Notes: generated by a model from the letters alone, not told the origin. 64,000 nucleotides of DNA from Abditibacteriaceae bacterium (GCA_031425655.1 JANPJS010000070.1:1-64000), one strand, 5' to 3'. Numbered from the stretch's first letter, positions 3,102 to 38,127 are shown. A program made the numbers and translations.

Positions 3102-3120
3102 GATTTTCTTTTCTGCTTTT

Positions 3121-3292: not shown

Positions 3293-3297
3293 ACCTT

Positions 3298-3798: not shown

Positions 3799-3813
3799 AT
3801 TATTTTGCTTTCA

Positions 3814-5024: not shown

Positions 5025-5027
5025 GAT

Positions 5028-8000: not shown

Positions 8001-8252
8001 TGTGAGGCTTTCCAACAGGGCTTTTTTCGTGCGCTGCGTAACTTCATCGCCCATCAAGATGCGAATTTTATCGAGCTTTTGCCATTGCCCTTCCAGCGCC
8101 AGCAGAGCGCCGATTTCAAAGTAGCCCGTCGCGATGTCCATCGCCCGCGCCAATTCCGTCCACTCCCGCAGATAATCGCGCATTTTCCAGTCGGAATCGG
8201 AGTTGTCAACAATAAAAAGTTCGTCGCCAGTGCGTGTGTCGTTTTGTGCCAT
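5028..8252 (-). CDS. PLD-nuclease domain plus SNF2-like SF2 helicase
   Basis: N-terminal FHAKAY...GSSNFT (PLD/HKD-like), Walker A DGVGLGKT, DEAHHFRN, LTATPVNN, SEGLNLQ and QRIGRVDR motifs. Confidence 0.9.
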   Translation of the reverse strand: MAQNDTRTGDELFIVDNSDSDWKMRDYLREWTELARAMDIATGYFEIGALLALEGQWQKLDKIRILMGDEVTQRTKKALLESLTQRATAVLDASLEKEKEKNDFLSGVPAIVEAMQSGKIECRVYAKQKFHAKAYITHARSRVVGSAALVGSSNFTFPGLSDNIELNVQLRREVDQLQEWYERHWDDAEDVSQDILKTIQRHTTEYAPFEIYARALRELMRNHVPDVEEWEKTQSKIWPLLAKYQQDGYASLMQIADKFGGAFLCDGVGLGKTFVGMMVIERLLHDRKKVVLFSPKAAKEPVWEATLQKYLPGAFGAWGGLRLCSHTDLGRSGPREGGGTWEEFWEEVATQADAIVIDEAHHFRNPGAEKSRESRYRKLARLCAGKKMFLLTATPVNNSLRDFQHMIELFTRNDPNYFVPKLGIHSLPTYFGDLEKKLEGEVRGLPVSQQQALALDTNEIEAEAVLQGAKIFEALVVQRSRTYARESQLQEALAQGKDGDHLKLFPDREAPKVAAYSVKKTYGKLLKLVEDAFNGKNPLFALAIYYPLAYARDAEKARLLAQDKRVENQQQQVVGLIRTNFLKRFESSTCAFESSCARLMVKLLNWVEDYAEPGAETKRLDRWKRDNGASLDYLDTILPGARRQNEERLKTQRENAERERESAVSEEDAEPESENSAERLDRKAYKVDEIIEDCFNDLNQIAEFLNELRKFKPANDDKLRCLKELLKKELKERKVLIFTQFSDTAKYLQNQLNEAGFEGVDEIDSGSKNTRNEIIGRFAPYYNGLSAPELKKRGWKETQILISTDVLSEGLNLQDATRLINYDLHWNPVRLMQRIGRVDRRMNPDIEAQIVNDNPRLFAERGDNNRVAYWNFLPPEELDELLKLYKRVTQKTLRISKTLGIEGKKLLTPDDDYDDLRDFTQLLEPAKSPLEALSLEWQKLAAEDEALPAKLDALPGRVFSCKAHPQPGARAVFFCYVLPNKDETRPEGEQWTHDGGPVLWLLYDLESKKTLDAPAQIAEFIRCAPGTPRRSSGEKETLGDVRRAVEKQLRDGLMRSLQPPAGVKPLLRCWMEDF

Positions 8253-8391
8253 AAAAGAAACCTGTTCAGATTGGCCAAGTATAAATCATCATGCGAAAGG
8301 CCCCGCCAAAACTGGCAGGGCCTTCGAAGTGACTTTCAATCGCCGCGAACCAAAAAACCGCGAGACGGTGACGATAATCGCACAAAGCAAG

Positions 8392-9765
8392 TTAAGTCGC
8401 GATTTGTCCGGCTTTGGCGCGTTTGCGCAACCTGCCGTTTGGGCGCACGCCGTTCGGGCGATTCGCCTTATTTTTGCGCCCTCTGAGGCCCAATGGCGCG
8501 GCGGGCGGCGGCGCGTTTTTGCCGACTAAATTATCCAGCACAGTTTGCAACTCACGACGCGCGGCAACGGCTTCGGCATGAGTTGAATCTTTGGCGACGA
8601 GCGTTTCTTTGAACGGTGCATCTTTCATGTCGAAAAGCTCACCGGCGTTGTTCAGTTTCCAGTTGGGCGTGCGCACGTAGCGCCAGCCGGCCAACTCGAC
8701 GTAAACCCATTCGCGCGGCGTGCCGATTTGCCCTTTGATTTGCGGCGCAAGGCTGTGCCCGTCCAATTTGACGCCGGCAGGCAGCGTGGCGCCGGCCAAA
8801 GCAGCGAAAGTCGGCAAGTAATCGCTAAAATCGGTCAAGTCACGGCAAACTTTGTCCGCCGGCGTGGTGCCGGGCCAATTGACGATCATCGGCACGCGGC
8901 TGCCGCCTTCCAGCATCGTGTGCTTCATGCCGGAAATCGGCTTGCCGTTTACCGTCGCACGCGCCGCGTGGCCTTGCGCGGTGCCGTTATCGCCCACGAA
9001 AACCACCAGCGTGTTGTCGCGCAGGCCCAAGCGGTCGAGTTCAGCCGTCAGCTTGCCGACTAACTTGTCCATGTAAGCGATATTATCCGCATAATGATCG
9101 CTGTTCGGCGTGCTGTCGGGCGTGCGTAAAATCGGCCCGTGGATGTGCGACATCGCGTAATGCACATAAAACGGCTGCGCTTTGTGGCGCGCCATGAAAT
9201 CCGCCAAAAAATCGTGCATCATATCCGGGACGTAGCGATTTTCGGGAATCGCTTTCTCTTCGCCGTTGAGAATGTAATTTTTCGCCTTGCCCTGACTGGC
9301 CCAGTAAGCGCCGCTGCCTTGAAAGCGAAAATACTCATCGAAGCCCCAATCGCCCGGCTGAAGCGGCAACTGCGCCCATTTGCCGATCTGCGCCGTGACG
9401 TAACCCGCCGTTTTCAGCACGCGCGGAATCATAATTTCGTTCGCCGGTTGCAGCGCCGCACCCGTGTTGTTGTTCGTCATGCCGGTGCGAAAAGGATAGC
9501 GCCCGGTCATTATTTGGGCGCGCGACGGCCCGCACAGCGGCGTCGAAAAGGCGTTCTGAAACAGCGTGCCGCCCTTCGCCAGCGCGTCGAGGTTCGGCGT
9601 CGGATATTGGCCGCCAGTGCAATGCACGTTGCCCAGTCCAACGTCGTCGCAAAGAATGAAAATGATGTTCGGCTTGCGACCGGCATCGGCGCTTTTGGCC
9701 CAGCGCGGAACGGCGAGGGCAGCGGCGGCCAAGCTGCTGGTTTGTAGAAAATGGCGGCGATTCAT
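8392..9765 (-). CDS. Arylsulfatase A-like sulfatase, Tat-exported
   Basis: MNRRHFL Tat signal; KPNIIFILCDD; CGPSRAQIMTGRY (CxPxR); GDNG. Confidence 0.92.
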   Translation of the reverse strand: MNRRHFLQTSSLAAAALAVPRWAKSADAGRKPNIIFILCDDVGLGNVHCTGGQYPTPNLDALAKGGTLFQNAFSTPLCGPSRAQIMTGRYPFRTGMTNNNTGAALQPANEIMIPRVLKTAGYVTAQIGKWAQLPLQPGDWGFDEYFRFQGSGAYWASQGKAKNYILNGEEKAIPENRYVPDMMHDFLADFMARHKAQPFYVHYAMSHIHGPILRTPDSTPNSDHYADNIAYMDKLVGKLTAELDRLGLRDNTLVVFVGDNGTAQGHAARATVNGKPISGMKHTMLEGGSRVPMIVNWPGTTPADKVCRDLTDFSDYLPTFAALAGATLPAGVKLDGHSLAPQIKGQIGTPREWVYVELAGWRYVRTPNWKLNNAGELFDMKDAPFKETLVAKDSTHAEAVAARRELQTVLDNLVGKNAPPPAAPLGLRGRKNKANRPNGVRPNGRLRKRAKAGQIAT

Positions 9766-9810
9766 AACGAAATTCTCCTTGCGTCGAGTGATGCAATGGA
9801 CACGCAGGGC

Positions 9811-9839
9811 TTGCCTTCGTTGCCCCGCGAACCTATAAT
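9811..9839 (+). promoter_or_regulatory. Sigma70-type promoter for the cimA leader
   Basis: TTGCCT-17 nt-TATAAT. Confidence 0.65.
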
Positions 9840-9847
9840 CTCTTGCG

Positions 9848-9922
9848 ATGCGACGCGCGAATTACCAAATTATACGAATTACGTTTCCGGCAGTTTGCCC
9901 GGTGATGGTTTTTCGCGTCTGA
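9848..9922 (+). CDS. Candidate Ile/Val-rich leader peptide (MRRANYQIIRITFPAVCPVMVFRV)
   Basis: ATG lies 8 nt after the -10 box (apparently leaderless); 3 Ile codons (ATT ATA ... ATT) and 4 Val codons; followed by a terminator and then cimA. Confidence 0.55.
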   Translation: MRRANYQIIRITFPAVCPVMVFRV

Positions 9923-17970: not shown

Positions 17971-18963
17971 TTACTTGCCCTTCATCCAACTCATGTTGCC
18001 TCGCAGTTCGGCGCCGACGGTTTCGATCTGGCTGTCGGCTTCTTCCTGCAGCTTCGAGGTGAAGTTCGGGCGGCCTGAAGTGTTTTCGTTCATCCATTCT
18101 TTGGCGAATTCGCCGGATTGGATTTCACCCAAAATCTTCTTCATTTCTTCGCGCGTTTGAGCGTTGATGATGCGCTTGCCGCGTGTCACGTCGCCCCATT
18201 TGGCGGTGTCGGAAATCGCGGCGCGCATTCCCGTGATGCCTTTTTCATACATCAGGTCAACGATCAGTTTCAGTTCGTGCAGGCACTCGAAATAGGCCAT
18301 TTCCGGCGCGTAACCGGCTTCGACTAAGGTTTCAAAGCCGGCGCGCACCAATTCACTGGCGCCGCCGCACAAAACGGCTTGTTCGCCAAAAAGGTCTGTT
18401 TCGGTTTCTTCCTGAAAGTTGGTTTCGTAAACCGCCGCGCGCGTGGCGCCCAAAGCTTTGGCGTAAGCGAGGCCGATGGCTTTGGCATTGCCGGTCGCGT
18501 CCTGATGAATCGCCAAAAGCGCCGGGACGCCTTTGCCTTCTTCATACTGGCGGCGCACGAACGGGCCGGGGCCTTTAGGCGCAACCATTAATACGTCCAC
18601 GTCGGTTGGCGGCGTGATGAAGCCGAAATGCACGTTAAATCCGTGCGAAAACAGCATCGCTTTGCCCGCCGTGAGGTGCGGCTTGACCTGATTTTCGTAA
18701 ATCTCGGCTTGCAAATGGTCTTGCGTGAGAATCTGAATCACATCGCCGCGCGCGGCGGCTTCTTCGGTTTCCACAACTTCCATGCCCTCGGCTAAAGCCG
18801 CATCGCGCGACTTGCCCGGACGCACGCCAATCAGCACTTTGACGCCCGAATCGCGCAAACAGAGGCTTTGCCCGCGTCCCTGACTGCCGAAGCCGATGAC
18901 CGACACCGTTTTGCCCTCAAGGGCCTTCAAATCCGCGTCCTGATCGTAATAAATCTGTGCCAC
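17971..18963 (-). CDS. ilvC: Ketol-acid reductoisomerase
   Basis: [34 protein letters not shown] and [15 protein letters not shown] motifs; GTG start with GGAG RBS. Confidence 0.96.
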
Positions 18964-18982
18964 GTTATCTCCTTGATTTTGA

Positions 18983-19123
18983 TTAACCGCAGAGGACGCG
19001 GAGGACGCAGGGAGGAATTGAGAGAAGGGGAATGGGATGTGAAATGTAATCACATTTGGTTTCTTGTTTTCCCGTTTCCGATCCCTCAAATCCTCTCTGC
19101 GTCCTCCGCGTCCTCTGCGGTTA
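18983..19123. repeat. Inverted pair of the 9-nt-periodic repeat family
   Basis: TTAACCGCAGAGGACGCGGAGGACGCAG ... CTGCGTCCTCCGCGTCCTCTGCGGTTAA. Confidence 0.85.
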
Positions 19124-19415
19124 ATTGAAACTTGCTCCACATCCAGCCCAACGCCGCGCCGAGCGCGACGAACAACACGACTTCGCCCAACAGCACGACC
19201 ACTTTATCCAAACCGAAATAGCCGGTTTGCGGGTCGAAGCGCGTCAGGTATTTGTGCATCTGCCACAACGGAAAAATCAGCGCGCCCGGAATGGCGCCGA
19301 TGAGTCCGCGTGGGCCGAGCGCGCGATAGCCGGCAAACGCGCCCCACAGCGCCAAAATCACAGCGCAAATCAGCACCAATTTTTCCGACTGCGCGGGCGA
19401 AATTAATTCTTGCAT
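19086..19415 (-). CDS. Hypothetical membrane protein, first gene after the T-box
   Basis: Three hydrophobic segments; C-terminus ([11 protein letters not shown]) is encoded by the repeat. Confidence 0.6.
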
Positions 19416-19429
19416 GGCTTTTCAGGCAC

Positions 19430-19775
19430 AAAAAAATCCCCCGCCCCGATGCCGCGATTGTCATCGCCAACTGCGGGACGAGAGATTATCTCCCGTGATA
19501 CCACCCACATTCCGCTGCGCGGAGTTGAAAGTTATGAGTGTTTAGTTTTGAGTTAAAACATCAACTCAAAATTTAAAACTCAAAACTCAAAACTACCGTT
19601 CAAACGGCACTTCATTAAACGCTGTTACGGGCGCTCCCGATTCAAACTACTCGGCAAATAGCTTTTCACTTGAATGGCTCCGAGGCGAGTTCGGCTTTGC
19701 GCGCTATCTCTTTCGCACCACATCAAGAGATTCTCTCAAACGCCCGACAGCTTACTACTCCTCATCACGGCCTTT
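19430..19775 (-). ncRNA. T-box riboswitch, leucine specifier (CUC)
   Basis: Minus strand reads GCCGTGATGAGGAGTAGTA (stem I), GAGAGA, GGTGCGA, specifier loop GAA-CTC (19687-19689), AGTA box, GCCCGTAAC, then T-box AATGTGGGTGGTATCACG (about 19493-19510) and a terminator ending in U7 at 19430-19436. It lies upstream of the ilv/leu genes. Confidence 0.88.
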
Positions 19776-19790
19776 CTAATTGTCGAAAAT

Positions 19791-19841
19791 AGGATAGGAA
19801 GATTGCGCGCCGTTGTCAATCGAAGCGCGCGGGGCTATCCT
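19791..19841. promoter_or_regulatory. Overlapping divergent promoters (T-box/leu operon and GH4 gene)
   Basis: Minus strand: TTGACA (19819-19814)-17-TATCCT. Plus strand: TTGTCA (19813-19818)-17-TATCCT. Confidence 0.55.
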
Positions 19842-19872
19842 CAACCGGAGCAACTTACAGGAGAACTTTTTC

Positions 19873-21339
19873 ATGGCTAAAGAAAACAGCAAAGGGCATT
19901 CGGAACACACCAAAGAAGCGGAAGCCAAAGGCTTGGCGGGCGTCATGCGCCGTCCGATCAAAATCACCATGATGGGCGCCGGCAGCGGATTTACGCCGCG
20001 CCTTGTCAACGATGTGATCGAAATTCCCGGCAATATGGGCGGCACCATCGCGCTCGTGGACATTGACACCGACCGCCTCAAAACGATGGAGCAGCTTATC
20101 AACAAGCTGTTTCAGCAAAAAGGCAAAGACAACTGGAAAGTTATCGCTTCGCCCGACCGTCGCAAGGTTTTAAAAGGCAGCGATTACATCGTCAATTGCA
20201 TCGAAGTGTCGGGAACGGCCTGCGTGCGCCACGACAACGATATTCCCGCCAAATACGGCATTGACCAGTGCATCGGCGACACCATCGGGCCGGGCGGCTT
20301 GTTCAAATCGCTGCGAACCATTCCTGTTTTCCTTGAGGTTTTGCGCGACGCCGAAAAGCTGTGCCCGAACGCGATTGTGCTCAATTACACCAATCCGATG
20401 AGCATGATGTGCCTCGCAGCGGGCCGCACAAGTTCGATGCCGGTTGTCGGCTTGTGCCATTCGGTTCAGGGCACCAGCCACTTGCTGGCGGGCCGCGCCG
20501 GTGTGCCGATTGACGAAATGGTCTGGGAATGCGCCGGAATCAACCATCTGGCGTGGTTCACCAAGTTGCAGCACAACGGCAAGGATTTGTATCCATTATT
20601 AAAGGAAAAAGCCGCCGCCGATTTGGAAAAAGCCATCGCCGAAGGCCAACCCAAAGCCAAAACCAAAGATAATAAGCACTTCGACGTGCCCGAACATCAC
20701 CGCGACATCGTCCGCAAGGACATGATGCTGCATTTCGGCGCGTTTATCACCGAATCGAGCGGACATCTTTCGGAATACCTGCCCTATTATCGCAAGCGCA
20801 AAGATTTGCTGAAAAAATATGCGCGTCCCGGTTATGATGGCGGCTCCAGCTTCTACGCCGACAACTGGCCGACGTGGCGCCAAAACGCCGACAAAGACCG
20901 CCTGGCGATGGTCAACGGCGAAAAAGAGATCAACTGGGAGCGCAGTTGGGAATACGCCAGTTGGATCATCGAAGCGCGCGAAAAAGACGTTCCGTTCCGC
21001 ATTCACGGCAACGTGATGAACGAAGCCAAAGGCGGCGGCCCGCTGATTTCCAATCTGCCCAGCGACGGCTGCGTCGAAGTCGCCTGCATGATTGACCAAA
21101 ACGGCATCAACCCGACGACCTACGGCAAACTCCCGCCGCAAATGGCCGCGCTGTGCGACAGCAACATGAGAATGTTCGACTTGGGCGCGACGGCTGCGAT
21201 GGAAAAGTCGAAAGAAGCCGCCATTTACTCGCTGATGCTCGACCCACTGACTGCCGCGATGTGCAGCCCGGCGGAAATCAAGCAAATGACGCTCGAAATC
21301 TTCGACGCCGAAGCCGAGTTTCTGCCCGGCTATAAATGA
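19873..21339 (+). CDS. melA: Glycoside hydrolase family 4 (NAD+-dependent alpha-galactosidase, MelA-like)
   Basis: KITMMGAGS, IGDTIGPGG, LNYTNPM, GLCHSVQ, AGINHLAW, TESSGHLSEY and LMLDPLTAA motifs. Confidence 0.9.
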   Translation: MAKENSKGHSEHTKEAEAKGLAGVMRRPIKITMMGAGSGFTPRLVNDVIEIPGNMGGTIALVDIDTDRLKTMEQLINKLFQQKGKDNWKVIASPDRRKVLKGSDYIVNCIEVSGTACVRHDNDIPAKYGIDQCIGDTIGPGGLFKSLRTIPVFLEVLRDAEKLCPNAIVLNYTNPMSMMCLAAGRTSSMPVVGLCHSVQGTSHLLAGRAGVPIDEMVWECAGINHLAWFTKLQHNGKDLYPLLKEKAAADLEKAIAEGQPKAKTKDNKHFDVPEHHRDIVRKDMMLHFGAFITESSGHLSEYLPYYRKRKDLLKKYARPGYDGGSSFYADNWPTWRQNADKDRLAMVNGEKEINWERSWEYASWIIEAREKDVPFRIHGNVMNEAKGGGPLISNLPSDGCVEVACMIDQNGINPTTYGKLPPQMAALCDSNMRMFDLGATAAMEKSKEAAIYSLMLDPLTAAMCSPAEIKQMTLEIFDAEAEFLPGYK

Positions 21340-21356
21340 TCTTGGACACAAGACGC

Positions 21357-21393
21357 AAAAACGGCGGCTCTCTTGACGAGAGCCGCCGTTTTG
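21357..21393 (+). terminator. Intrinsic (bidirectional) terminator after melA
   Basis: AAAACGGCGGCTCTC-loop-GAGAGCCGCCGTTTT. Confidence 0.85.
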
Positions 21394-21414
21394 ATTTCCT
21401 GCTTTTGCATCAAT

Positions 21415-22092
21415 TCATTGCTTTTCAAAGCGGGCGATGCGCCGCTCGATGTCCTCCACGACTTCGCGCACAGATTGCAAATCATCGGCGCTCAGATGCT
21501 CTTTTAATTCATCGAAGAGAGGCGGCAAAGCGGGGCGATACGATTGCAAAAGGGTCGCAACATCGTTTTCGTATAAGCCCACGCGCGCGAAATTTCTTAA
21601 GCGATAAAGCGCCGGCAGCGCGTAAAGTTTGAGGAGTAGCAAGCCGTTGACCGTCGCGCAGGCGATGGAGCGCTCAACAAAAGGCTGCCGCGTGGCCTGA
21701 TGGCGGCGCACGTAATCGAAAAGGCGATTGCGCGTCAGCAAAAAGTCAATGCGAAGTCCGCGATATTCGCCGCGCGCGAAATCGTCGTCCTGATGCGAAA
21801 TGGCAATTTCCGGCAATTTTCTCAAATCGGAAATGGCAACAATCAGATCAATATCTTCGGTGTTGCGCCCTTCCATGTATTGCAAAAGCGCGATGCCGCC
21901 GACCAGTAGATAATCAACCTCGCGCTCTTCCAGCAAGGCGAATAATTCGCTAACGATTTGGAGCAATGGTTCCATATTTTCGATTTCACCCATGCCGCGC
22001 TGCGATGCGTCGCGCCAGTTTTTGAAGTTAAAAACCCGCGCGTTTCGCACCACTTCGCCAATATGAACCGATCTAGAAAGAAGCGTCGCCAT
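21415..22092 (-). CDS. Nucleotidyltransferase-like protein (cassette 1 cargo)
   Basis: LVGGIAL...RNTEDIDL NTase motif; LLLLKL; start codon uncertain. Confidence 0.7.
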   Translation of the reverse strand: MATLLSRSVHIGEVVRNARVFNFKNWRDASQRGMGEIENMEPLLQIVSELFALLEEREVDYLLVGGIALLQYMEGRNTEDIDLIVAISDLRKLPEIAISHQDDDFARGEYRGLRIDFLLTRNRLFDYVRRHQATRQPFVERSIACATVNGLLLLKLYALPALYRLRNFARVGLYENDVATLLQSYRPALPPLFDELKEHLSADDLQSVREVVEDIERRIARFEKQ

Positions 22093-22184
22093 CGTGCCAA
22101 AAGTTTAGCAAGCGCCGGTGAAGCCGACACAGCGCCCTCAAAACAAACAGGCCACTGTCGCGGCTCTTTGTTTAACAACACTTC

Positions 22185-22298
22185 TACGCCCTGATGCCCG
22201 ACCCGCTGACTGCCGCGATGTGCAGCCCCGCTGAAATCAAGCAGATGACGCTCGAAATCTTCGACGCCAAAGCCGAATTTCTGCCCGGCTACAAGTAA
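22185..22298 (+). repeat. Direct repeat R1 of the melA 3' end
   Basis: Encodes YALMPDPLTAAMCSPAEIKQMTLEIFDAKAEFLPGYK*; matches the melA end (about 21226-21339). Confidence 0.95.
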
Positions 22299-22363
22299 AG
22301 CTGCAGAGTTAGAATAAGAGCGTGAACACCTTGCGTGTTCACGCTCTTATTTTTGGAGGCGCC

Positions 22364-22555
22364 ATGAAATCCCCGCACCTTTCCGTCTTTTTTTCGACGC
22401 TTTGTGTGATGGCCGCATCAAGCGGTTTCGGTGCTGCCTTGATGCTGCTCTTTCCGGGAAGGCTTTCCATCCCTTACTTTTTCTTTGTTGTGGCCTTTCT
22501 CTTCTCTTTACTGTCGCGCCGATACAACTCCACGAAGCCAGAGAAAAGCAGATGA
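22364..22555 (+). CDS. Small two-TM membrane protein (cassette 2 cargo)
   Basis: GGAGG RBS; MKSPHLSVFF...; its stop falls inside repeat R2; preceded by the hairpin AATAAGAGCGTGAACAC...GTGTTCACGCTCTTATT. Confidence 0.55.
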   Translation: MKSPHLSVFFSTLCVMAASSGFGAALMLLFPGRLSIPYFFFVVAFLFSLLSRRYNSTKPEKSR

Positions 22556-22605
22556 CGCTCGAAATCTTCGACGCCGAAGCCGAATTTCTGCCGGGTTACA
22601 AATAA
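22546..22605 (+). repeat. Direct repeat R2 of the melA 3' end
   Basis: Encodes KQMTLEIFDAEAEFLPGYK*. Confidence 0.95.
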
Positions 22606-22693
22606 TTTTTTCGCCACAATGGCACAGGAGCATAAAGAATCCTCTCTTTGTGTCCCTGTGCCTTTGTGATGAAATTGCAACAGTAGGTTCGAC

Positions 22694-22907
22694 ATGGCAA
22701 TGCACGCTTCTCCCGCAAAACTACCCCGCGCCGTTCGCAAGCAGGTCGCGCGTCCCCGCAAACTCAAAGAACCAGTCAGCGCCCGCGAACGCCTTCTCGC
22801 GGCCTTGTCCGCCGCGCCACGACTGAGCGCCCCCGACGCAGACCGCATCAATCAAGCGGTGCAGGCCGCGCGGGAGGCTTCGCTTGGCGACGACCTTTCT
22901 GCTTGCA
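22694..22907 (+). CDS. Putative antitoxin (cassette 3 cargo); natural stop apparently lost through a 1-nt insertion
   Basis: Small ORF directly upstream of and overlapping a PIN toxin; as sequenced it reads on to 22951. Confidence 0.55.
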
Positions 22908-23304
22908 CACCAATATCATCACGGCTCTGGCACAAGGCCACAGCACGGTGATGACGCATCTGCGCCAATTATCCCCGGACGATGATATTGGAACCTGCTT
23001 CATTGTAGTCGGCGAGTGGGAATACGGTCTGCTGAACGCTAAGGCCATGGCAAAGCAGGCTCAAATCCGCGCCACCGGAGCGCCGCTGTTTGCCGCCCTG
23101 ACCGCCATTTGGGATTCAACGCCCGCTATTGCTTTGCGCTACGGCGCCATTCATGCGGCGCTTCGTGCCGACGGCCAAATGATTCCCACCAACGATATTT
23201 GGATCGCCGCCACCGCACTGGAACAAAACGCTACCGTCGTCACAACCGACCCTCATTTTCAGCGAGTAGCAGGATTAAATGTTGTAGATTGGACGCAGCC
23301 GTAA
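22884..23304 (+). pseudogene. vapC: VapC/PIN toxin with a +1 frameshift near the start (cassette 3 cargo)
   Basis: IVVGEWEYG, NDIWIAATAL and VTTDPHF motifs; GGAGG RBS plus TTG at 22884; deleting C22906 restores FLLDTNII. Confidence 0.8.
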
Positions 23305-23339
23305 CCGACATCCAATCTACGGACGGCGCGAACTCCAGC

Positions 23340-23426
23340 GCCGCGATGTGCAGCCCGGCGGAAATCAAGCAAATGACGCTCGAAATCTTCGACGCCGAAG
23401 CCGAGTTTTGGCCCAGCTATAAGTAA
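23340..23426 (+). repeat. Direct repeat R3 of the melA 3' end
   Basis: Encodes AAMCSPAEIKQMTLEIFDAEAEFWPSYK*. Confidence 0.95.
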
Positions 23427-23439
23427 AACGCGCCAACAT

Positions 23440-23477
23440 AGAAAAGCCCGCCGCAAAGGGTCGCGGCGGGCTTTTCT
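23440..23477. terminator. Bidirectional terminator after R3
   Basis: AGAAAAGCCCGCCGC-loop-GCGGCGGGCTTTTCT. Confidence 0.85.
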
Positions 23478-23493
23478 ACAAGCTGGCCAATCC

Positions 23494-24057
23494 TCAAAAA
23501 TAAACAGCCCGTTTTCCTAACGTAATAATCACCGCTTCGATGGCCTGATTGACGGAGTTCGCAATTTTGTCGTCCGCGTGATTATAGAAAAAAGTGTCGG
23601 GATTCCACATCTTGAACTTCACTGTTGTGCCCTTTATCCTCATTTCTACTTCCACTTCCTGTCCGTCGCAGGCCAGCCAGTATCCCTTCCCTTGCTTTGC
23701 TGGACGTTTATTCAGATCAGCGAAGTATTTCTGATAGTCAATCTTCGGCAGCTTCAGTTTTTCTAAGCGGCGCACCAACTGAATACTGGAAAACGTCCCC
23801 AGTTCGGAAACTTTCTGGTTTTTGCCTGTAATCTGCACAACCTTAATTCCTTGATAGTTTGAATAGACAGTAAGCACGTTCCGAGGCCGTCGAAAATTCG
23901 GCAGGTCATCGGCTCCTTTGGTGATCTCGAAACGCGCGATAAGAACTTGCTTTTGTTCCGGATTCGCTTGCGCTGTCACGGAAGTTAGATTGGCCAAGAA
24001 CGCCAAAAAGGTGAGAAAGATTCTCACTGCGATGTTTTTAGAAATTGAAAGTTTCAT
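23494..24057 (-). CDS. Hypothetical secreted protein, low GC (cassette 4 cargo)
   Basis: Signal-peptide-like N-terminus; 187-aa ORF. Confidence 0.7.
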   Translation of the reverse strand: MKLSISKNIAVRIFLTFLAFLANLTSVTAQANPEQKQVLIARFEITKGADDLPNFRRPRNVLTVYSNYQGIKVVQITGKNQKVSELGTFSSIQLVRRLEKLKLPKIDYQKYFADLNKRPAKQGKGYWLACDGQEVEVEMRIKGTTVKFKMWNPDTFFYNHADDKIANSVNQAIEAVIITLGKRAVYF

Positions 24058-24118
24058 AAATGCTCACACCGTGCATGATTTCCTTGTTTGACCGAGTATA
24101 TCTTATGATTTTGTTCCA

Positions 24119-24205
24119 GCCGCGATGTGCAGCCCGGCGGAAATCAAGCAAATGACGCTCGAAATCTTCGACACCGCAGCCGAATTCCTGCCGGGTTATA
24201 AATAA
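24119..24205 (+). repeat. Direct repeat R4 of the melA 3' end
   Basis: Encodes AAMCSPAEIKQMTLEIFDTAAEFLPGYK*. Confidence 0.95.
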
Positions 24206-24220
24206 CGCGTCGAAAAAAGC

Positions 24221-24258
24221 AAAAAGAGCGACAAAACCAAAGTTTCGTCGCTCTTTTT
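24221..24258. terminator. Bidirectional terminator after R4
   Basis: AAAAGAGCGACAAAAC-loop-GTTTCGTCGCTCTTTT. Confidence 0.75.
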
Positions 24259-24289
24259 CGTGACGCTTTCAAAGGCATTTTCAGTTCGC

Positions 24290-24733
24290 TCACGGATGCA
24301 AGGGCAGAGGCGGCACGAAATCGGGCAATTTGAATTCATACATCGAGCCGCCGAGCGACGCGCGGCTGTGTTCGTATATGGAGAATCGCGTGGTCGCCAG
24401 CATTTCGCGCGACAAAGCGAACCAGTAAACAACGGTGTCTTTTTTGGTTTCGCCGGCCACCTGAGTGGAGAGCAGCAGCTTCGCGGCGTTGCGAATTTCC
24501 AGATTCGCCGTGCGTTTTATCGTCCATTGATGATCGGCGGGGAATTTTTGCTCCTTGTCCAAATAGCGCGTGATGGTGAAACCGAAGGTGCCGTCCGGGC
24601 GCTTGGCGGTTTCAACCGTGATGCCGTCCTCTTTTGTTGACTGCGGTGTGACGGTTTGCACGGAGATCAGGGCGAAGGCGGGAACGCTGATTAACGACAA
24701 CAAAACGGCGGTGGCAACGAAACGGATTTTCAT
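24290..24733 (-). CDS. Hypothetical secreted protein (cassette 5 cargo)
   Basis: Signal peptide MKIRFVATAVLLSLISVPAFA; AGAGGA RBS. Confidence 0.7.
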   Translation of the reverse strand: MKIRFVATAVLLSLISVPAFALISVQTVTPQSTKEDGITVETAKRPDGTFGFTITRYLDKEQKFPADHQWTIKRTANLEIRNAAKLLLSTQVAGETKKDTVVYWFALSREMLATTRFSIYEHSRASLGGSMYEFKLPDFVPPLPLHP

Positions 24734-24899
24734 GGCGACATTTCCTCTTTTTGGCGCGGCACGTCAGGCCGCAATCAACGACCTCAATAGAATTAAGTAT
24801 GTTCCACAAAGACGCTCCGACAAAAGATTTTAAAAGCCATTAGCTGTTAGTTTCTTTGTGCCTTTGTGCCTTTGTGCCTTTGTGGTGAAATGAAATCCC

Positions 24900-26405
24900 G
24901 TGACCGATTCCTCTTCTAAATTCAACGACGCGCATCTGGCAACGGCCAAGCGCGTCGTTTTATTCACAGTTTTCCTCGATATTCTCGGCTTCGGCATCAT
25001 CATTCCGCAATTGTCGGTTTACGCCGCGCAATATTCGGCCACGCCGGAGCAAATCGGGCTGCTCGCCTCGTCGTATTCGGCGATGCAGTTTCTCTTTGCG
25101 CCGTTTTGGGGGCGCTTATCCGACCGCATCGGGCGCCGTCCGGTTTTGGTGTGGAGCATCTTCGGCACGGCGCTCGGCTATGTGCTTTTCGCTTACTCCG
25201 GCTCATTGTGGATGCTTTTTGCCGCGCGCATTTTAGACGGCATCACGGGCGCCAATATCTCGACGGCGCAAGCTTATTTATCGGACGTGACGCCCGAAAA
25301 AGACCGCGCCAAAACCTTCGGATTGTTCGGCGCGATTTTCGGAATCGGCTTCGCCATCGGGCCTCTTATCGGCGGAATGCTGGCCAATTTGCCGGCGCCG
25401 TGGGGCGGCAACTTCGGGCTGGGCTGGTTCACCGCCACGCTCAGCTTCATCAACTGGGGCTTCGCTTTGTTGCGCCTGCCCGAAACCCTGACGCCCGAAA
25501 CGCGCCGCGCCAACGCCGCGCGTCAGCACGAGCAAGGCAGCAAATTCTCGATTATCAACCTGCATGGCTTTCGGCGCGCTTTTGCCATTCCCAGCCTGCG
25601 CCTCGTGCTGATTACAAGCTTTATCGGCACCCTTGCGTTTGCCACGCTGATGGGCACTTACACCACCTTCATTTTGGTGCGCTACGCCCGGCCCGAAGTG
25701 CAGCAGCAAATCAAAACCAACACGCAAAAAGCGGTCGTCGAAGCGCGAACGCACATGAGTCACAACGAAAAACAAAGCGGCCCGCACAGCGAAGGCGGCG
25801 CGCCGATTCCCGGATTACACGACGACAAACCGTTTGCCACAGGGCTGGGCGGCGATTTCACTTTAGATAAACCGCCGCCCGAAGGCTTATCGTGGCGGCA
25901 AGTGGAAAAGGTGCTGGTGCGCTACCGCACGACGGAAATGGTGAGTTGGATTTTCACCATCATCGGCGTGTTGGCGCTGATTGTCCAGGGAGGCCTGATT
26001 CGTCCCTTGAAAAAGCGCTTTTCCGACGTGAATTTGATCCTTCTCGGCACCTTTTTAGTAGCGCTGGCGCTGGCCTTAGTGCCGCTTCCGCACCAATTCG
26101 GCTGGCAGTTCCCCGGCGCGATGCTGATGGCGATTGGCAACGGCATTTCGTCGCCGATTTTGACTGCGATGGTCTCGCTTTTGGCGCCCGAATCTGAGCG
26201 CGGCGAAATCATTGGCGTGTTTCAATCCACGCAAAGCCTCAGCCGCATTTTAGGGCCGCAACTGGGCGGCATTCTCTTCGGTGTCATTTCGCCAAGTGCG
26301 CCTTATTTTGTGGGCGCCGCGATTATGATGATTTCTTTCTATGTGGCGCTGGGCCTGCGCGGTGTGAAAATCGAAGGCGCCGAATCCGCGACCGCCAAAG
26401 CCTAA
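24900..26405 (+). CDS. MFS transporter, TetA/DHA1-like
   Basis: DILGFGIIIP, WGRLSDRIGRRPVL (motif A), GFAIGPLIGG; about 12 TM segments. Confidence 0.9.
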   Translation: MTDSSSKFNDAHLATAKRVVLFTVFLDILGFGIIIPQLSVYAAQYSATPEQIGLLASSYSAMQFLFAPFWGRLSDRIGRRPVLVWSIFGTALGYVLFAYSGSLWMLFAARILDGITGANISTAQAYLSDVTPEKDRAKTFGLFGAIFGIGFAIGPLIGGMLANLPAPWGGNFGLGWFTATLSFINWGFALLRLPETLTPETRRANAARQHEQGSKFSIINLHGFRRAFAIPSLRLVLITSFIGTLAFATLMGTYTTFILVRYARPEVQQQIKTNTQKAVVEARTHMSHNEKQSGPHSEGGAPIPGLHDDKPFATGLGGDFTLDKPPPEGLSWRQVEKVLVRYRTTEMVSWIFTIIGVLALIVQGGLIRPLKKRFSDVNLILLGTFLVALALALVPLPHQFGWQFPGAMLMAIGNGISSPILTAMVSLLAPESERGEIIGVFQSTQSLSRILGPQLGGILFGVISPSAPYFVGAAIMMISFYVALGLRGVKIEGAESATAKA

Positions 26406-26437
26406 TTTCGGCAAACGATTTGCGTGGCGCCGCCGCG

Positions 26438-27481
26438 ATGAAAATTGACACCGATTTTTTACTGAAAACCCTGCTGCGCTTGGTCAATACGCCCAGTCCG
26501 GCGGGCGATACGCAACGCGGCACCGATTTATGCCACGAAATTCTCTGCGACATTGACGATTCGTTTGATATTCACACCACGCGCAAGGGCGTTTTGGTGG
26601 CAACGTGGCCGGGCTTGCGCGATGATGAGCCGCGCGCCGTTTCGGCGCACATTGATACCATCGGCGCAGTCGTCAAAGGCTTCAACCCGGACGGGCGTAT
26701 TCTGATGCAGGAAGTCGGCAGCCTGCCGTGGACATCGGTGGAAAACGAAGGCGTCACTATCAACGGCAAAAACGGCCCGTTGCGTGGCAGCGTGCTGATT
26801 AAGGAAGCCAGTTACCACTTGCACGAAGAAGACGAAATCGAAGACGCGCCGCGTAACGACCGCACGATGTCGGTGCGTCTGGACGCCAAAATTCACAGTG
26901 CCGCTGATACGCGCGCTTTGGGCATCGAGATCGGCGCTCCGATTTATTTCGATGCGCGCCCCGAAGTGAACAACGGTTTCGTGCGTTCGCGCTACCTCGA
27001 CGACAAAGCCTGCTTGGCCTGCGTTTTCGCGGCGGCTAAAGCGATTTACGAGTCCGGCACACGCCCGGCGCAGCGCACCACGTTTCACATTCCTAACTAC
27101 GAAGAAGTTTGTCACGGCGGCGCCAGCGGCGTGCCCGACGACGTAGCGGAGTTTTTGGCCGTAGACGTGGCTCCTACCGGCACGCGCCAAAATTCGGATG
27201 AATACTCTTGCACGCTTTGTTTAGCCGATGCCGACGGCCCCTACGACGCGCAAATGAATGCGAAATTGAAGGCTATCGCTGTGCAACACGGCGTCAAACT
27301 CAAGCCGGATGTATTCCCGCGCTTTTCTTCGGACGCCAAAGCCCTGTGGAAATCCGGCGCCGATGTGCGCTGCGCTTTAATCGGCCCCGGAGTCCACGCC
27401 ACGCACGGCTACGAGCGCACGACAATCGAAGCCTTAGAAACAACAGCGCGCTTAATCGCACTTTATTTGCTCTCAACGTGA
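26438..27481 (+). CDS. M42 family metallopeptidase
   Basis: PSPAG, SAHIDTIG, RYLDDKA, YEEV, AVDV and THGYER motifs. Confidence 0.88.
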   Translation: MKIDTDFLLKTLLRLVNTPSPAGDTQRGTDLCHEILCDIDDSFDIHTTRKGVLVATWPGLRDDEPRAVSAHIDTIGAVVKGFNPDGRILMQEVGSLPWTSVENEGVTINGKNGPLRGSVLIKEASYHLHEEDEIEDAPRNDRTMSVRLDAKIHSAADTRALGIEIGAPIYFDARPEVNNGFVRSRYLDDKACLACVFAAAKAIYESGTRPAQRTTFHIPNYEEVCHGGASGVPDDVAEFLAVDVAPTGTRQNSDEYSCTLCLADADGPYDAQMNAKLKAIAVQHGVKLKPDVFPRFSSDAKALWKSGADVRCALIGPGVHATHGYERTTIEALETTARLIALYLLST

Positions 27482-27500
27482 AAAATTGTGCCTTTTCGAC

Positions 27501-27529
27501 TTGGCAAAGCGTAGCGCTCCGATTAAAAT
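27501..27529 (+). promoter_or_regulatory. tRNA promoter
   Basis: TTGGCA-17 nt-TAAAAT about 20 nt upstream of the tRNA. Confidence 0.55.
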
Positions 27530-27548
27530 AATCTCGCGCAACGCGTAT

Positions 27549-27623
27549 TGCCCTGTAGCTCAGCGGTAGAGCAATCGGCTGTTAACCGATGGGTCGCTGG
27601 TTCGAATCCGGCCGGGGCAGCCA
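27549..27623 (+). tRNA. tRNA-Asn(GTT)
   Basis: TGCCCTG acceptor stem, TAGCTCAG-CGGTAGAGC D arm, ATCGG-CTGTTAA-CCGAT anticodon arm, GGTTCGAATCC T arm and encoded CCA. Confidence 0.97.
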
Positions 27624-29272
27624 TTCCGTTCGTTAGTTACGAACCATTTTTCGAGGTGTGACTCTTGAGAGTCATGCCTCGATTTTGGTATGTGGTGGAT
27701 TTCTACCCAGAACGACCCATCCGGCAACCACTCAATACGGTTGAAGATCAGCCGCATCAACCTTTGTAATTCTTCCGGCTCAGCCTCCTCAGCTAACTCC
27801 GAGAAACTCGACAAGACATCGCGAAGCGCCGCAGCGTCGGGACGTTGGCGCAAAACTTCCAAAGCGGCCAACCGCTGTTGCTTCTCGATATTAAGCCGCT
27901 CTCGCTGCTGAGTCAGAGCATCTACTTTCTCATTCATCAGGGCCAGCAGGGCATTATTCGCTTTACCTTGACCAATGGTTGTCAGGAAGTTGTTAATCTG
28001 CGCTTCCACTTCCAGCAAGGCTTGATTGGTTAGCTTAAGTGCCTCCGTTTCCGGAGACAGATCCCCTTCAAGTCGTCGCATTGCACCTTCTAAGGCAGTC
28101 TCAATCACCGATTCAGTTGCAGCGAGCCGCCAGATGCCTTGGAGGATCTGAGTCTCAGCTTGCTCGGATAGAACGCGGTTCTTATGCTCGCTCACTTTTG
28201 GTCCGTTCTTGTGCGTATTGGAGCAAGTGTAATAGTGAATTCGAGAAGCAGAACGACGCTTTTCTTTCAGATTCGGCTTATGTTGCACGTAATAGGGCGT
28301 CATCGCATGGCCGCATGTTGCACAATAGAAACGTCCCTGCAATGGATAAACGCGGCCACACTGGTTTCGGGAGTAACTCTTTGGCCTTCCACGGCGATTG
28401 GGGGACAAAAGCGCCTTCTCCCGCCTAATAACCTGTGCTTGGTCGAAGAGTTCCATAGGTATCAAAGGATCGAACGCATCAGCGAGGAGCTGATAAGCCA
28501 GTTGTTCCGGCACTCCCCGCCGTCCGCGATTCTTCTTGTTGATTTCGATACCACCCACATATCGGGGATTCATCAATACGTCTCGAATTGTGCTAACAGT
28601 CCATACAGGCTGGCCGGATGGTGATGGAATCTGATGCGTCTGTAACCACTCGCGCACTTTGTAATCAGAAGCTGTAGCTACGTAAACCTGAAACATCTTC
28701 AACACGGTAGGAGAGGTATCAGGATTTGCATCCAACTTTTGTGTTGTCTGGTTACTGACAAAGCCAAAGGGCACCGCGCCGCCGTTCCACATACCCTTCT
28801 CCGCCCGCATCCTCAGTTTCAGAGAAACCTTTTCGCCCGTCTGCTCGCGATCATATGCTTTGGCTCCAACAAGCATGTGTTCCATAAATCGCCCAGCCGC
28901 TGTGTCTCGATCCGCCTTATCATGCAATGTAACGAACTTCACTCCGTGTGCCCGAAACTCCTGATCCAAAATGAAGAACTCGCGCGTGCGGATAAGGCGG
29001 TCATACCATGTGCAGAGGACACAGTCCGCCTGTTTGGAGGTCACCAACTCACGCAGGCGAGCTAATCCTGGCCGTTTCAAGGAACCAACTGAATAGCCCG
29101 GATCTTGGATCTCCGCTGTAACTTCGTAACCCTGCTCACGACAGTAGGCACGAAGTTCCTCAAGCTGGGAGGCACAACTGGGGTAGTTACCACGAGTCTG
29201 CTCCTGCGTGGAAACACGGGCATAGGTGACAGCGCGCAGACTTTCGCCGTCATCCCGGTCAGATCTCTTCAT
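27560..29272 (-). CDS. Large serine recombinase (integrase); 3' end overlaps tRNA-Asn antisense
   Basis: YARVST (catalytic Ser), RPGL, DRLIR, GGAVPFGF recombinase domain, CATCG...YYTC zinc ribbon and coiled coil. Confidence 0.93.
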   Translation of the reverse strand: MKRSDRDDGESLRAVTYARVSTQEQTRGNYPSCASQLEELRAYCREQGYEVTAEIQDPGYSVGSLKRPGLARLRELVTSKQADCVLCTWYDRLIRTREFFILDQEFRAHGVKFVTLHDKADRDTAAGRFMEHMLVGAKAYDREQTGEKVSLKLRMRAEKGMWNGGAVPFGFVSNQTTQKLDANPDTSPTVLKMFQVYVATASDYKVREWLQTHQIPSPSGQPVWTVSTIRDVLMNPRYVGGIEINKKNRGRRGVPEQLAYQLLADAFDPLIPMELFDQAQVIRREKALLSPNRRGRPKSYSRNQCGRVYPLQGRFYCATCGHAMTPYYVQHKPNLKEKRRSASRIHYYTCSNTHKNGPKVSEHKNRVLSEQAETQILQGIWRLAATESVIETALEGAMRRLEGDLSPETEALKLTNQALLEVEAQINNFLTTIGQGKANNALLALMNEKVDALTQQRERLNIEKQQRLAALEVLRQRPDAAALRDVLSSFSELAEEAEPEELQRLMRLIFNRIEWLPDGSFWVEIHHIPKSRHDSQESHLEKWFVTNERNGCPGRIRTSDPSVNSRLLYR

Positions 29273-29573
29273 TTCTTTCTCCCAACTGCTCATTTGAGCT
29301 AAGAGCTGTCTCCCGCTTTTTAAGAATACGCAAGGCAATCCCACCCAAGATGTCCGCTATTGCGTCATGACGCTGGCTCGGCCTCATGAAATCACCAGAC
29401 AACTGTGCGAATGCCCGGTCGGAATCCAATTTGAAAACCACGCGCTCAGGCTCGTAAGCCAACTCTTTAGTCGGGCTGGGAATGGCTGACATAACTACGC
29501 CAGAACCAACCCCAGGCCTATCAATGTGAAAGCCGATGACCTTAATCATGAATTCCATCTCCTTTAGTCGCAT
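29259..29573 (-). CDS. Hypothetical protein upstream of the integrase
   Basis: 104-aa ORF overlapping the integrase start. Confidence 0.45.
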   Translation of the reverse strand: MRLKEMEFMIKVIGFHIDRPGVGSGVVMSAIPSPTKELAYEPERVVFKLDSDRAFAQLSGDFMRPSQRHDAIADILGGIALRILKKRETALSSNEQLGERNEEI

Positions 29574-36771: not shown

Positions 36772-37980
36772 ATGCAACAATTTGGGCCATTAACCAACCA
36801 AATCCTCAGCCGTTTAGCGTCTGCGAACCGGCAACACGTCACTCTCAATCGGCAGGTGGTGGAGGATGCTTTCGCACAGCATTTCAAACTCCTTGGCCTA
36901 ACTCCGTTGCCTGTGCGGTGGATGGATGATGCCGAAGTTGCTTATGACAGGATGTCTCAAGTGTTTTGGAAAGCGGAGCAAGCGGCGACGACGGCGGAAG
37001 AGCGGGAGGAATACGACCTTTACCGGACGTCCTTTCTCTATGCCGACGTCTCCATGCAGGCTGTCGCGGCCAGGTTGCGCGCAGCACAGCTCTCGGTTCT
37101 CTTAGACGAGCGCCTGGCTGCCCTGTCCGCACTACGCGAACAGGCATCAAGGGCGTATCAGCCGGAAAAGCAAAAACTGGCCTGGCCGGATTTCCAGTTC
37201 ATGAAATGGGGGTCGAGTTATCAATCCGGACAATGGAAGACGGCATTTATAGGGAGTTGGTCCATGGCTGAGGAGGAAGCGGCGACGACGGCCATGTTAA
37301 GCAAGGGCCGTTTTCGAGAGGGTTTATGGGCCACAAGATGCGAAGTAGAATCGGCGGCGTGGCTGGCGTTGGAGGCGGCCTACTGGTTAGCGGCTCAGGC
37401 GCTGGCGAATTCCAGTTCTCCCATAGTTGAACATTGTGTCGCGGCCCACCTGCCCTTCCTGGAAGCTTATGAAGCCGGGTTGTGGTGCTTCTGGGTGCGG
37501 CGCCATGAAGTGGTGGCGGTGCCACGGCCTACTCTTCATATCCATAATAACCAACTGCACTGTGCGGATGGCCCAGCCGTATCGTGGCCCAATGGCACCA
37601 AATACTATTTCTGGAGGGGCATTCATGTCCCCTCCGAAGTGATTGAGTCTCCCCAATCCCTCACCGTCGCCGGCATCGACGCCGAGCGAAACGCCAAAGT
37701 GCGGCGCGTCATGGTTGAACGATTCGGACAGGAACGCTACCTGGTTCAAAGCGGCGCGTTAAAAGTCGATGACACGGACTGGGGAACGCTTTATCGCCGA
37801 CCAATGGAGGATGAAGAGGATCTGGTGATGATAAAGGTGATCAATTCTACGCCAGAGCCTGATGGCACATTCAAGGACTACTTTCTGCGGGTTCCACCTC
37901 ACGTTCAAACGGCAAAGGAAGCAGTGGCGTGGACCTTCGAGGAAAGCGCTGACGACTATGCACCCAGCGTGCAAACCTGA
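36772..37980 (+). CDS. DUF6745-like protein, paralog 1
   Basis: LHCADGPAVSWPNG..YFWRGIHVP, ERNAKVRRVMVERFG and NSTPEPDGTFKDYFLRVPP motifs. Confidence 0.8.
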   Translation: MQQFGPLTNQILSRLASANRQHVTLNRQVVEDAFAQHFKLLGLTPLPVRWMDDAEVAYDRMSQVFWKAEQAATTAEEREEYDLYRTSFLYADVSMQAVAARLRAAQLSVLLDERLAALSALREQASRAYQPEKQKLAWPDFQFMKWGSSYQSGQWKTAFIGSWSMAEEEAATTAMLSKGRFREGLWATRCEVESAAWLALEAAYWLAAQALANSSSPIVEHCVAAHLPFLEAYEAGLWCFWVRRHEVVAVPRPTLHIHNNQLHCADGPAVSWPNGTKYYFWRGIHVPSEVIESPQSLTVAGIDAERNAKVRRVMVERFGQERYLVQSGALKVDDTDWGTLYRRPMEDEEDLVMIKVINSTPEPDGTFKDYFLRVPPHVQTAKEAVAWTFEESADDYAPSVQT

Positions 37981-38127
37981 TCCTGGCCAGCACCAGTAGT
38001 AATGAAAAGGCAATAGATCAGAACGCCGGAATGGCCTTGGAACTCAGACCCACAACACCGTCTCGGAGAGACCAGTCGGTGTGCTGGACCCGGTGAACGT
38101 CGATGATAGTGGCCTAAGAGAACCCCT

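Follow-up and report, generated by a model that had tools for sequence, protein, structure and literature searches.

The 64,000-nucleotide (nt) stretch of DNA analysed here (the window; Abditibacteriaceae bacterium, GCA_031425655.1, JANPJS010000070.1:1-64000) carries an intact melA gene, encoding an alpha-galactosidase-like protein of glycoside hydrolase family 4 (GH4), behind which four displaced copies of the gene's own 3' end are stacked, with small units of unrelated DNA between the copies. With a probability of roughly 0.6, this array is considered to be the result of four successive additions of same-genus DNA at the end of melA, each anchored by homology and made without a recombinase. 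Repeated gene ends of the same kind were found at other core genes of the genome, and the codon pattern of the copies is that of diverged alleles. Coordinates given without a contig name are positions in the window, which belongs to contig C70 of a short-read metagenome-assembled genome (MAG; 327 contigs, 5.98 Mb; G000).

The melA array

The 3'-terminal 60-114 nt of melA were observed in five direct copies, both in a repeat search of the window and by BLAST against the whole of G000; the BLAST search returned just these five matches and no sixth copy in the 5.98-Mb genome. An earlier description made from the sequence alone (the sequence-only reading) had listed four additional melA tails, each ending at a stop codon, and had proposed units stacked behind an intact melA, each with a melA tail and its own terminator. 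The repeat and BLAST searches confirm the former, and RNA folding, which places a terminator-like hairpin in every unit, supports the latter. The array and the genes next to it are laid out as follows, where ORF denotes an open reading frame and NTase a nucleotidyltransferase:

19813-21339 (+): melA, intact, GH4 alpha-galactosidase-like; Pfam Glyco_hydro_4, E 5e-48, and Glyco_hydro_4C, E 3e-50
21226-21339 (+): copy 1, the native melA end; 114 nt, stop TGA
21340-22184: cassette 1; hairpin 21358-21392 (fold -35.1 kcal/mol, z -7.0); NTase-like ORF 21415-22092 (-); GC 0.523
22185-22298 (+): copy 2; length 114 nt, TAA stop codon; a single E-to-K substitution; matches copy 1 at 91% over 110 nt
22299-22545: cassette 2; hairpin 22313-22351 (fold -31.9 kcal/mol, z -5.9); hydrophobic ORF of 77 amino acids (aa) 22322-22555 (+); GC 0.498
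22546-22605 (+): copy 3; 60 nt, stop TAA; five differences from copy 1, all synonymous
22606-23339: cassette 3; long hairpin 22609-22674 (fold -37.0 kcal/mol, z -7.1); VapB-like ORF 22694-22951 (+) and PIN/VapC ORF 22903-23304 (+); GC 0.58
23340-23426 (+): copy 4; length 87 nt, TAA stop codon; two substitutions, L-to-W and G-to-S; matches copy 1 at 96% over 83 nt
23427-24118: cassette 4; hairpin 23439-23478 (fold -37.2 kcal/mol, z -6.0); 187-aa ORF 23494-24057 (-); GC 0.458
24119-24205 (+): copy 5, the most distal; 87 nt, stop TAA; 93% identity to copy 1
24206-24899: segment after copy 5; hairpin 24221-24258 (fold -26.3 kcal/mol, z -4.0); 147-aa ORF 24290-24733 (-); tract of tandem 8-mers, then the MFS gene
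24900-26405 (+): MFS transporter; Pfam MFS_1
26420-27481 (+): M42 peptidase; Pfam Peptidase_M42

The melA product scores just under the cut-off of the NCBIfam alpha-galactosidase subfamily (465 bits; cut-off 486), and its orthologues in congeners share 91-92% aa identity with it. The displaced copies were found to be 89-96% identical to copy 1 (BLAST E 3e-38 to 2e-17), and the five copies are mutually 83-96% identical over the stretches they have in common. All five are in frame up to the stop codon, and the encoded tails differ by 0-2 residues inside the repeat proper, with one extra difference at the left edge of copy 2. The closest allele to copy 3 is the melA of the congener G002 (97%). 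A core of 21 nt is unchanged across the five copies and the G002 gene; a scan of metagenome contigs with this core gave eight loci, all of them chance matches, none encoding melA or the cargo. The right ends of the copies coincide, and variable DNA starts only past the stop codon. The left ends vary, corresponding to melA position 21226 in copy 2, 21253 in copies 4 and 5, and 21280 in copy 3.

The spacer units are 845, 247, 734 and 692 nt long; between copy 5 and the MFS gene there are another 694 nt. In cassette 1, the NTase-like ORF gave weak PF14907, DUF6036 and AbiEii-like matches. Family scans (Pfam and NCBIfam) assigned no family to the 77-aa ORF of cassette 2. The PIN/VapC gene of cassette 3 matches PF01850 (E 7e-16), and the NCBIfam VapC models match it below their cut-offs. 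Both the 187-aa ORF of cassette 4 and the 147-aa ORF after copy 5 have a signal-peptide-like N-terminus; no family was above cut-off for the former and none was found for the latter. The cargo has no paralogue elsewhere in the genome, and four of the five units are lower in GC (0.46-0.52) than the genome (0.567). A strong hairpin lies within about 25 nt of each of the five stop codons, and the five hairpin sequences are all different. They fold at -26 to -37 kcal/mol (z -4.0 to -7.1), and none of 200 shuffles folded equally well. Folding was used in place of a simple terminator scan, which caught one hairpin of the five (24221-24258).

Small repeats were also noted in and near the array. A 14-nt motif (CTTTGTG, A or G, TGAAAT) at 22646-22675 and at 24846-24891, together with the 8-mer tandem tract, precedes the VapB-like ORF and the MFS gene. 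Region 22646-22675 was considered as a duplicated 5' flank of the MFS gene (like 24862-24891); since the motif occurs five times in the genome, about 50 times the chance expectation and including an inverted (hairpin) pair on contig C34, a small palindromic repeat family is more likely. Upstream of melA, at 19523-19594, lies a palindrome of AGTTTTG/CAAAACT repeats, for which the bin depth in sequencing run X1 is about 2000, against about 13 around it. Similar hairpins precede genes on contigs C256 and C320, and the palindrome looks like a member of a REP-like (repetitive extragenic palindromic) family common to many organisms of the sample.

Repeated gene ends across the genome

When the whole genome was compared with itself, 273 pairs of repeats 45-400 nt long were found on the same strand at a distance under 6 kb, and 240 were left after attC pairs were removed. 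In 25 genes besides melA, the last 53-177 nt were found to be repeated 0.4-4 kb downstream, with the fragment ending at a stop codon. Twenty-three of these genes were kept; the C104 case was dropped as a tandem exbD paralogue and the C143 case (79% identity) was set aside as doubtful. Left out before counting were C113 and C153 (66-73% identity, 237-356 nt), and also paralogue entries in which both copies end long ORFs. A scan for other repeated 3' ends had been suggested in the sequence-only reading, and it succeeded; its outcome, along with the 5'-end cases below, does away with the accompanying idea of a platform specific to melA.

The targets are core genes, among them lepA, glnA, pyrG, carB, arc, mrp, two DUF1501 genes and the genes for pyruvate carboxylase, a release factor and fucose isomerase. 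Both glnA and mrp are followed by two displaced fragments each, and the congener G001 has a displaced glnA fragment of its own, of another length (65 nt). For arc, 24 of the 26 other genomes of the family gave a match, each in a single place at E <= 1e-6, a search in which short fragments could be missed. The scar is also present at 5' ends, with four clear cases in G000 (C150, C160, C178 and C326). In the congener G003, probably a long-read MAG, a two-gene unit (95 aa and 118 aa) has uvrB on one side and, on the other, a 59-nt copy of the start of that gene at 93% identity (L187:7151-8045; G003:C8:687151-688045); by inspection, without a family scan, this unit was read as a toxin-antitoxin (TA) pair.

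The cargo at the other loci includes HicBA, a PIN toxin, a UPF0175/DUF3368 pair, a NotI-like endonuclease with its methylase, a second methylase, an HNH nuclease, a UDG-like protein, an AAA ATPase and a few large ordinary genes. Restriction-modification (RM) cargo is present at two of these loci and absent from melA. None of 36 cargo ORFs at 20 loci has an integrase, resolvase or transposase domain, and inspection of 30 left boundaries by eye revealed no common motif.

Empty sites in relatives are clearest at pyrG. G002 and G003 have clean empty sites there: the gene end in each, along with its flank, aligns to the distal copy of G000 and the DNA flanking that copy. In G001 an empty site is recognised by the gene end alone, which also aligns with the distal copy. 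Because the pyrG ends of the relatives match the distal copy, the incoming part is the HicBA unit plus the proximal tail. A HicBA pair occurs behind pyrG in G000 (L071:1895-2311) and behind melA in G002 (L032:1054-1470), with 324 of 417 nt identical. This pair was tried as a guide to unit boundaries and was uninformative, since the homology spans exactly the start codon to the stop codon. A search for gene-end copies located far off or on other contigs was likewise uninformative: matches were returned for 122 genes, mostly from paralogue families and contig-end overlaps.

What the copies are was examined codon by codon in 25 analysable pairs from 21 genes (705 codons; four more pairs, with indels, were skipped). 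Differences at codon positions 1, 2 and 3 numbered 39, 27 and 107, with 100 synonymous and 52 non-synonymous codons; without C104 the positional counts become, by subtraction, 36, 25 and 101. The spread departs from uniformity over codon positions (chi-square, p = 1e-14) and from a third-position share of 0.44 (binomial, p = 2e-6), the latter being our own conservative estimate for one selected and one neutral copy. A fresh target duplicate would be identical to its source at birth and would then change evenly over codon positions, and the observed pattern differs from this. The third-position excess indicates instead that most of the divergence arose while both tails were working gene ends in separate lineages. 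At melA, the copies are 85-97% identical to the G002 and G003 alleles and about 70% identical to that of G005, from another genus of the family; the distance among the copies themselves (83-94% identity over shared regions) is as great as their distance to the two congener alleles, and the donors were congeners. By these comparisons, the paired copies are diverged alleles from congeners and not fresh target duplications.

Among 61 repeat pairs overlapping the end of a long ORF, the repeat ends at most 4 nt from the stop codon in 24 and at most 8 nt in 30. This sharp right edge is attributed to diverged relatives ceasing to align past the stop codon. An in-frame stop or indel was found in 6 of 29 displaced copies, as expected for dead DNA. 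Some pairs are near-identical (97-98%).

Relatives, read support and recombinases

The melA tail is single-copy in each of five relatives. In G005, the gene order is KARI, membrane protein, melA, MFS, M42, with a melA-MFS gap of about 290 nt, and this adjacency is the ancestral one. Behind melA in G003, a remnant of the C-terminus of the 147-aa ORF was detected by tblastn, and window positions 24277-24360, just past copy 5, are 83% identical over 84 nt to the G003 DNA that follows melA. The flank of copy 5 corresponds to the melA flank of G003, so the most distal copy bears the old flank of the genus; this fits the earlier proposal that older units were pushed downstream. G002 has different DNA behind melA, including the HicBA pair. 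The prediction of a variable region downstream of melA held, the region being different in every relative examined. The stacked array itself was seen only in G000 and, in part, in runs X2 and X3 of another study.

The G001 contig (L004, G001:C167:1-2866) stops inside melA, 25 codons short of the stop codon and no more than about 10 nt from the left boundary common to copies 4 and 5. Where this contig ends suggests that the G001 sample may vary at this same point.

Homologues of the NTase gene were considered as possible travelling cassettes and this was rejected; one homologue was found among the 26 other family genomes, and that locus has no displaced fragment beside it.

Read support was drawn from Logan contigs, an independent k=31 assembly, of run X1 (98% of sampled words; the probable source run). 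Depth in X1 is 11.7 over melA, 12.8 over cassettes 1 and 2 together, 13.1 over cassette 3, 12.8 over cassette 4, and 11.6 and 11.2 over the MFS gene, with an overall range of 11.2-13.8 across these parts. If the cassettes were alternatives carried by different strains, the melA depth would be the sum of theirs; instead, each cassette by itself reaches the melA depth. One X1 contig (21292-22581) extends from copy 1 across cassette 1, the whole of copy 2 and then cassette 2 as far as copy 3, and the remaining X1 contigs break only within the shared core, which exceeds 31 nt. In X2 and X3, melA was found at about 94% identity and the NTase cassette with its copy-2 junction at about 96%; a 192-nt contig from these runs, 22047-22238, crosses the boundary at 22185. 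The MAG contig ends overlap by about 117-141 nt, which implies an assembly word longer than any of these repeats. There is no listed contig from X1 over 24180-24647 or from X2 and X3 over cassettes 2 and 4, gaps that say nothing on absence.

Known recombination systems are present elsewhere in the genome. A classical integron lies on contig C103, where the only IntI-like tyrosine recombinase ORF seen (4880-5845) precedes an attC array (6600-9895); its name comes from its position beside the array and from a C-terminal motif recognised by eye. BLAST with one of its own attC sites gave about 65 attC-like sites on 28 contigs, none of them on C70. More attC-like sites were noted on C211 (7-10 sites in 5.5 kb), C100, C243 and C143. 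The sequence-only reading had called the melA array integron-like, a comparison that fails in that the integron of this genome uses attC and C70 has none. The same reading had stated that no integrase is adjacent. For the array itself this stands: it contains no recombinase, no unit is large enough to encode one, and no tyrosine recombinase was found among the ORFs of 18000-28000. It does not stand for the neighbourhood, since a large serine recombinase ORF (594 aa, 27560-29344, -; Resolvase, Recombinase and Zn_ribbon_recom domains) lies 2.7 kb downstream of the array. The 3' end of this ORF overlaps tRNA-Asn (27549-27623), and many unassigned ORFs follow, to about 47000. A second copy of the tRNA-Asn end was not found on the contig. 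The recombinase and tRNA-Asn are probably part of a separate integrated island.

Mechanism, alternatives and known systems

In the proposed mechanism, each incoming piece would carry a diverged melA tail, the terminator belonging to that allele and one small accessory unit. Recombination within the tail would rebuild an intact melA from the incoming end and leave the previous end as a dead fragment downstream, and repetition at the working end would shift older units outward, the oldest farthest. For the joining step, the most likely event is one RecA-type crossover involving a donor that is circular or circularly permuted (Campbell-type insertion-duplication). A permuted linear donor could be cut from an existing repeat-cargo-repeat unit, and circles may form by recombination between two flanking repeats, which would make the units mobile between relatives. 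One-sided homologous recombination with an illegitimate second join is a close alternative for this step. Both the circular or permuted intermediate and the route of DNA entry are inferred. ComEC and DprA homologues are encoded in the genome, as they are in most of the control genomes, and offer a weak sign of DNA uptake. Survivorship may account for the excess of TA and RM cargo, in that repeat-flanked units would be easily deleted and addictive modules would resist loss.

Several observations weigh against successive homology-anchored addition. In an 800-kb sample of G003, no 3'-end case and one 5'-end case were found, where the density in G000 predicts about three; either G000 is unusually rich in such repeats, or part of its excess may not be genuine. 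No circle, excision product or cassette-loss variant was seen in the contigs, which cannot reveal rare forms. The small circles of the sequence-only reading were thus not observed. The only back-joining contig, an X1 joint from 23223 to 21257 ('goes back 1967', depth 2.1), was rejected as a circle junction, as just 42 letters lie past the joint, where copies 1 and 4 are identical and the placement is ambiguous. The model does not explain the first duplication at any locus. Copies 4 and 5 share their exact left boundary, with 5-6 nt alike just upstream, an agreement not expected of independent events. For the order of the array across copies 1, 3, 4 and 5, the original assembly is the only source, and if X1 is the source run of the MAG its contigs may re-assemble identical reads. 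Finally, none of 80 melA loci of other species has a downstream fragment; melA turnover is documented solely within this genus, and NTase homologues are rare.

A broader form of the homology-based reading would make core-gene ends sites of cassette exchange driven by the host RecA, a 'homology integron' in which units leave as looped-out circles, move from one congener to another and insert again at the same gene end, so that arrays become self-reinforcing capture sites that keep TA and RM cargo without a dedicated recombinase; this extension is tentative and rather doubtful. Serial integration of site-specific elements in the melA tail is unlikely. Such elements, decayed or trans-mobilised, would each have brought a replacement tail, with their integrases lost or acting in trans. 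In favour of this reading, the layout is that of tandem accretion (behind the intact gene come repeats that differ in their left extent and share the gene end as their right limit), the 21-nt core is invariant in the five copies and G002, and a large serine recombinase gene lies 2.7 kb away. However, that gene abuts tRNA-Asn and heads the separate island, units of 247-845 nt cannot encode a recombinase, and none of the 36 cargo ORFs at 20 loci has a recombinase domain. Moreover, 24 genes would demand 24 specificities, the 30 boundaries share no motif, and 5'-end cases exist.

The probability is low that the copies arose by true long target-site duplication, through an unknown enzyme or through a restriction- or toxin-induced break with staggered repair, giving copies of 50-180 nt of which only insertions spanning a gene end survive. 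RM insertions with duplications of more than 30 bp (listed values about 46-420 bp), no mobility genes and RM breakage as a proposed cause are described in the part of the literature drawn on here (PMC2853133), and the cargo includes the NotI-like RM pair, methylases, the HNH nuclease and TA pairs; the pairs that are 97-98% identical would also suit this origin. The third-position and 100:52 synonymous excesses are, however, unexpected for copies born identical, the repeats halt at the stop codon rather than continuing into intergenic DNA, and the stop codons differ (TGA versus TAA). Very little weight falls on a chimera of assembly or binning, in which the melA-downstream regions of co-occurring strains were chained via the shared tail. 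It would be consistent with the origin of G000 as a short-read MAG of 327 contigs, with the breaks of the Logan contigs at the shared core (which leave the order over copies 1, 3, 4 and 5 to the original assembly) and with the far smaller number of such repeats in G003. Yet the depth is even over melA and cassettes 1-4 and not divided, any chain needs each cargo-fragment junction to be present in the reads, a contig spans copy 2, whose left junction is found again in runs of another study, the repeats (60-114 nt, 83-96% alike) are shorter than the assembly word of about 141, and a 5'-end case exists in the probably long-read G003.

Successive homology-anchored addition at a gene end shares features with several known systems. 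Integrase-driven accretion at gene 3' ends is known for e14 in icd, for SCC (staphylococcal cassette chromosome) in rlmH/orfX, for cis-mobilizable and integrative and conjugative elements (CIME/ICE) at fda and for tRNA islands; it works through a dedicated recombinase, of the tyrosine or serine type, at a defined core site; some units are without a recombinase of their own. As in those systems, the gene end at melA is replaced, the old end is displaced, and tandem repeats restore the gene and end at its end; unlike in those systems, no recombinase or core site was found in or beside the melA-type units. The array resembles integron cassette arrays in its small, promoter-less or single-gene tandem units and TA-rich cargo, and differs from integrons and CALIN (clusters of attC sites lacking integron integrases) in having no IntI and no attC at melA and in that the repeat is coding sequence of the neighbouring gene. 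Insertion of RM units with long target duplication was reportedly described by Nobusato et al. in 2000.

The later account of such insertions (Furuta, Abe and Kobayashi 2010, PMC2853133), in the portions considered here, concerns RM units without a mobility gene, having on either side direct repeats (30 to about 420 bp) that align with a single target in the empty site and often span a gene start or stop, the gene staying intact. The melA array has the layout used to define them there: a repeat of more than 30 bp (60-114 nt), an insert of less than 20 kb (247-845 nt), no mobility genes and a single target in relatives. It differs in its cargo, which at melA does not consist of R and M genes (RM and HNH genes do occur at other loci here), in its codon pattern, which is that of diverged alleles and not of a duplicated target, and in scale: the insertions in the consulted part of that work are single RM events, whereas here four units are stacked and about two dozen genes are affected, mostly with non-RM cargo.

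For rhs displacement arrays, small circles with a conserved fragment and cargo, formed and inserted by homologous recombination, have been proposed (Jackson et al. 2009, PMC2935791), as far as the extracts of that paper used here extend. As in rhs arrays, a full-length gene is followed by fragments whose conserved segment varies in length (here 114, 60, 87 and 87 nt), with older ones shunted downstream. In rhs, as those extracts have it, the incoming piece swaps a C-terminal toxin tip and brings an immunity gene; at melA, the protein is unchanged and the cargo consists of separate, unrelated genes. The claim that such a platform had not been described before therefore fails: for rhs arrays, circles with a single crossover were already put forward, and insertion with long target duplication and no recombinase has been published (PMC2935791 and PMC2853133, each in the portion cited). 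In Escherichia coli, when a plasmid with one homology was used, 56 of 60 recombinants were single-crossover duplications, of 109-950 bp in the 14 sequenced, and one-sided illegitimate events were rare in those experiments (Amarir-Bouhram et al. 2011, PMC3240628, from the results available to us). The array resembles this Campbell-type insertion-duplication in that a molecule with one short homology integrates and duplicates it; the difference from the laboratory constructs of that report, so far as they are covered here, is that the events at core-gene ends are natural, repeated, gene-preserving and genome-wide. What this array contributes is the four-deep stack at a housekeeping gene, the genome-wide scars at both gene ends and the codon evidence for imported alleles. 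An additive route without a dedicated recombinase is known in outline and is seldom seen this clearly.

TA pairs, RM systems and orphan secreted proteins often lie between core genes without a mobile-element signature, and their route of arrival is poorly documented. In this genome, about two dozen gene-preserving insertions are tagged by displaced ends, and one locus presents four events in order. If plain homologous recombination is responsible, any conserved gene end could act as an attachment site for integrase-free gene gain, addictive cargo would be enriched merely by resisting repeat-repeat deletion, and displaced gene ends would be a searchable marker of this route in metagenomes.

Other features were noted elsewhere in the window. 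Region 3118-4031 contains a 131-nt repeat family and a 45-nt unit, itself bearing an internal palindrome, that is present in four copies (spacings 45, 648 and 176 nt). ARAGORN called a tRNA with anticodon TTA ('tRNA-Stop') at 1011-1089 (-), a call that may be false. Two adjoining paralogous ORFs (402 and 404 aa) occupy 36772-39342 and share stretches of 300 nt and 101 nt at 73-79% identity.

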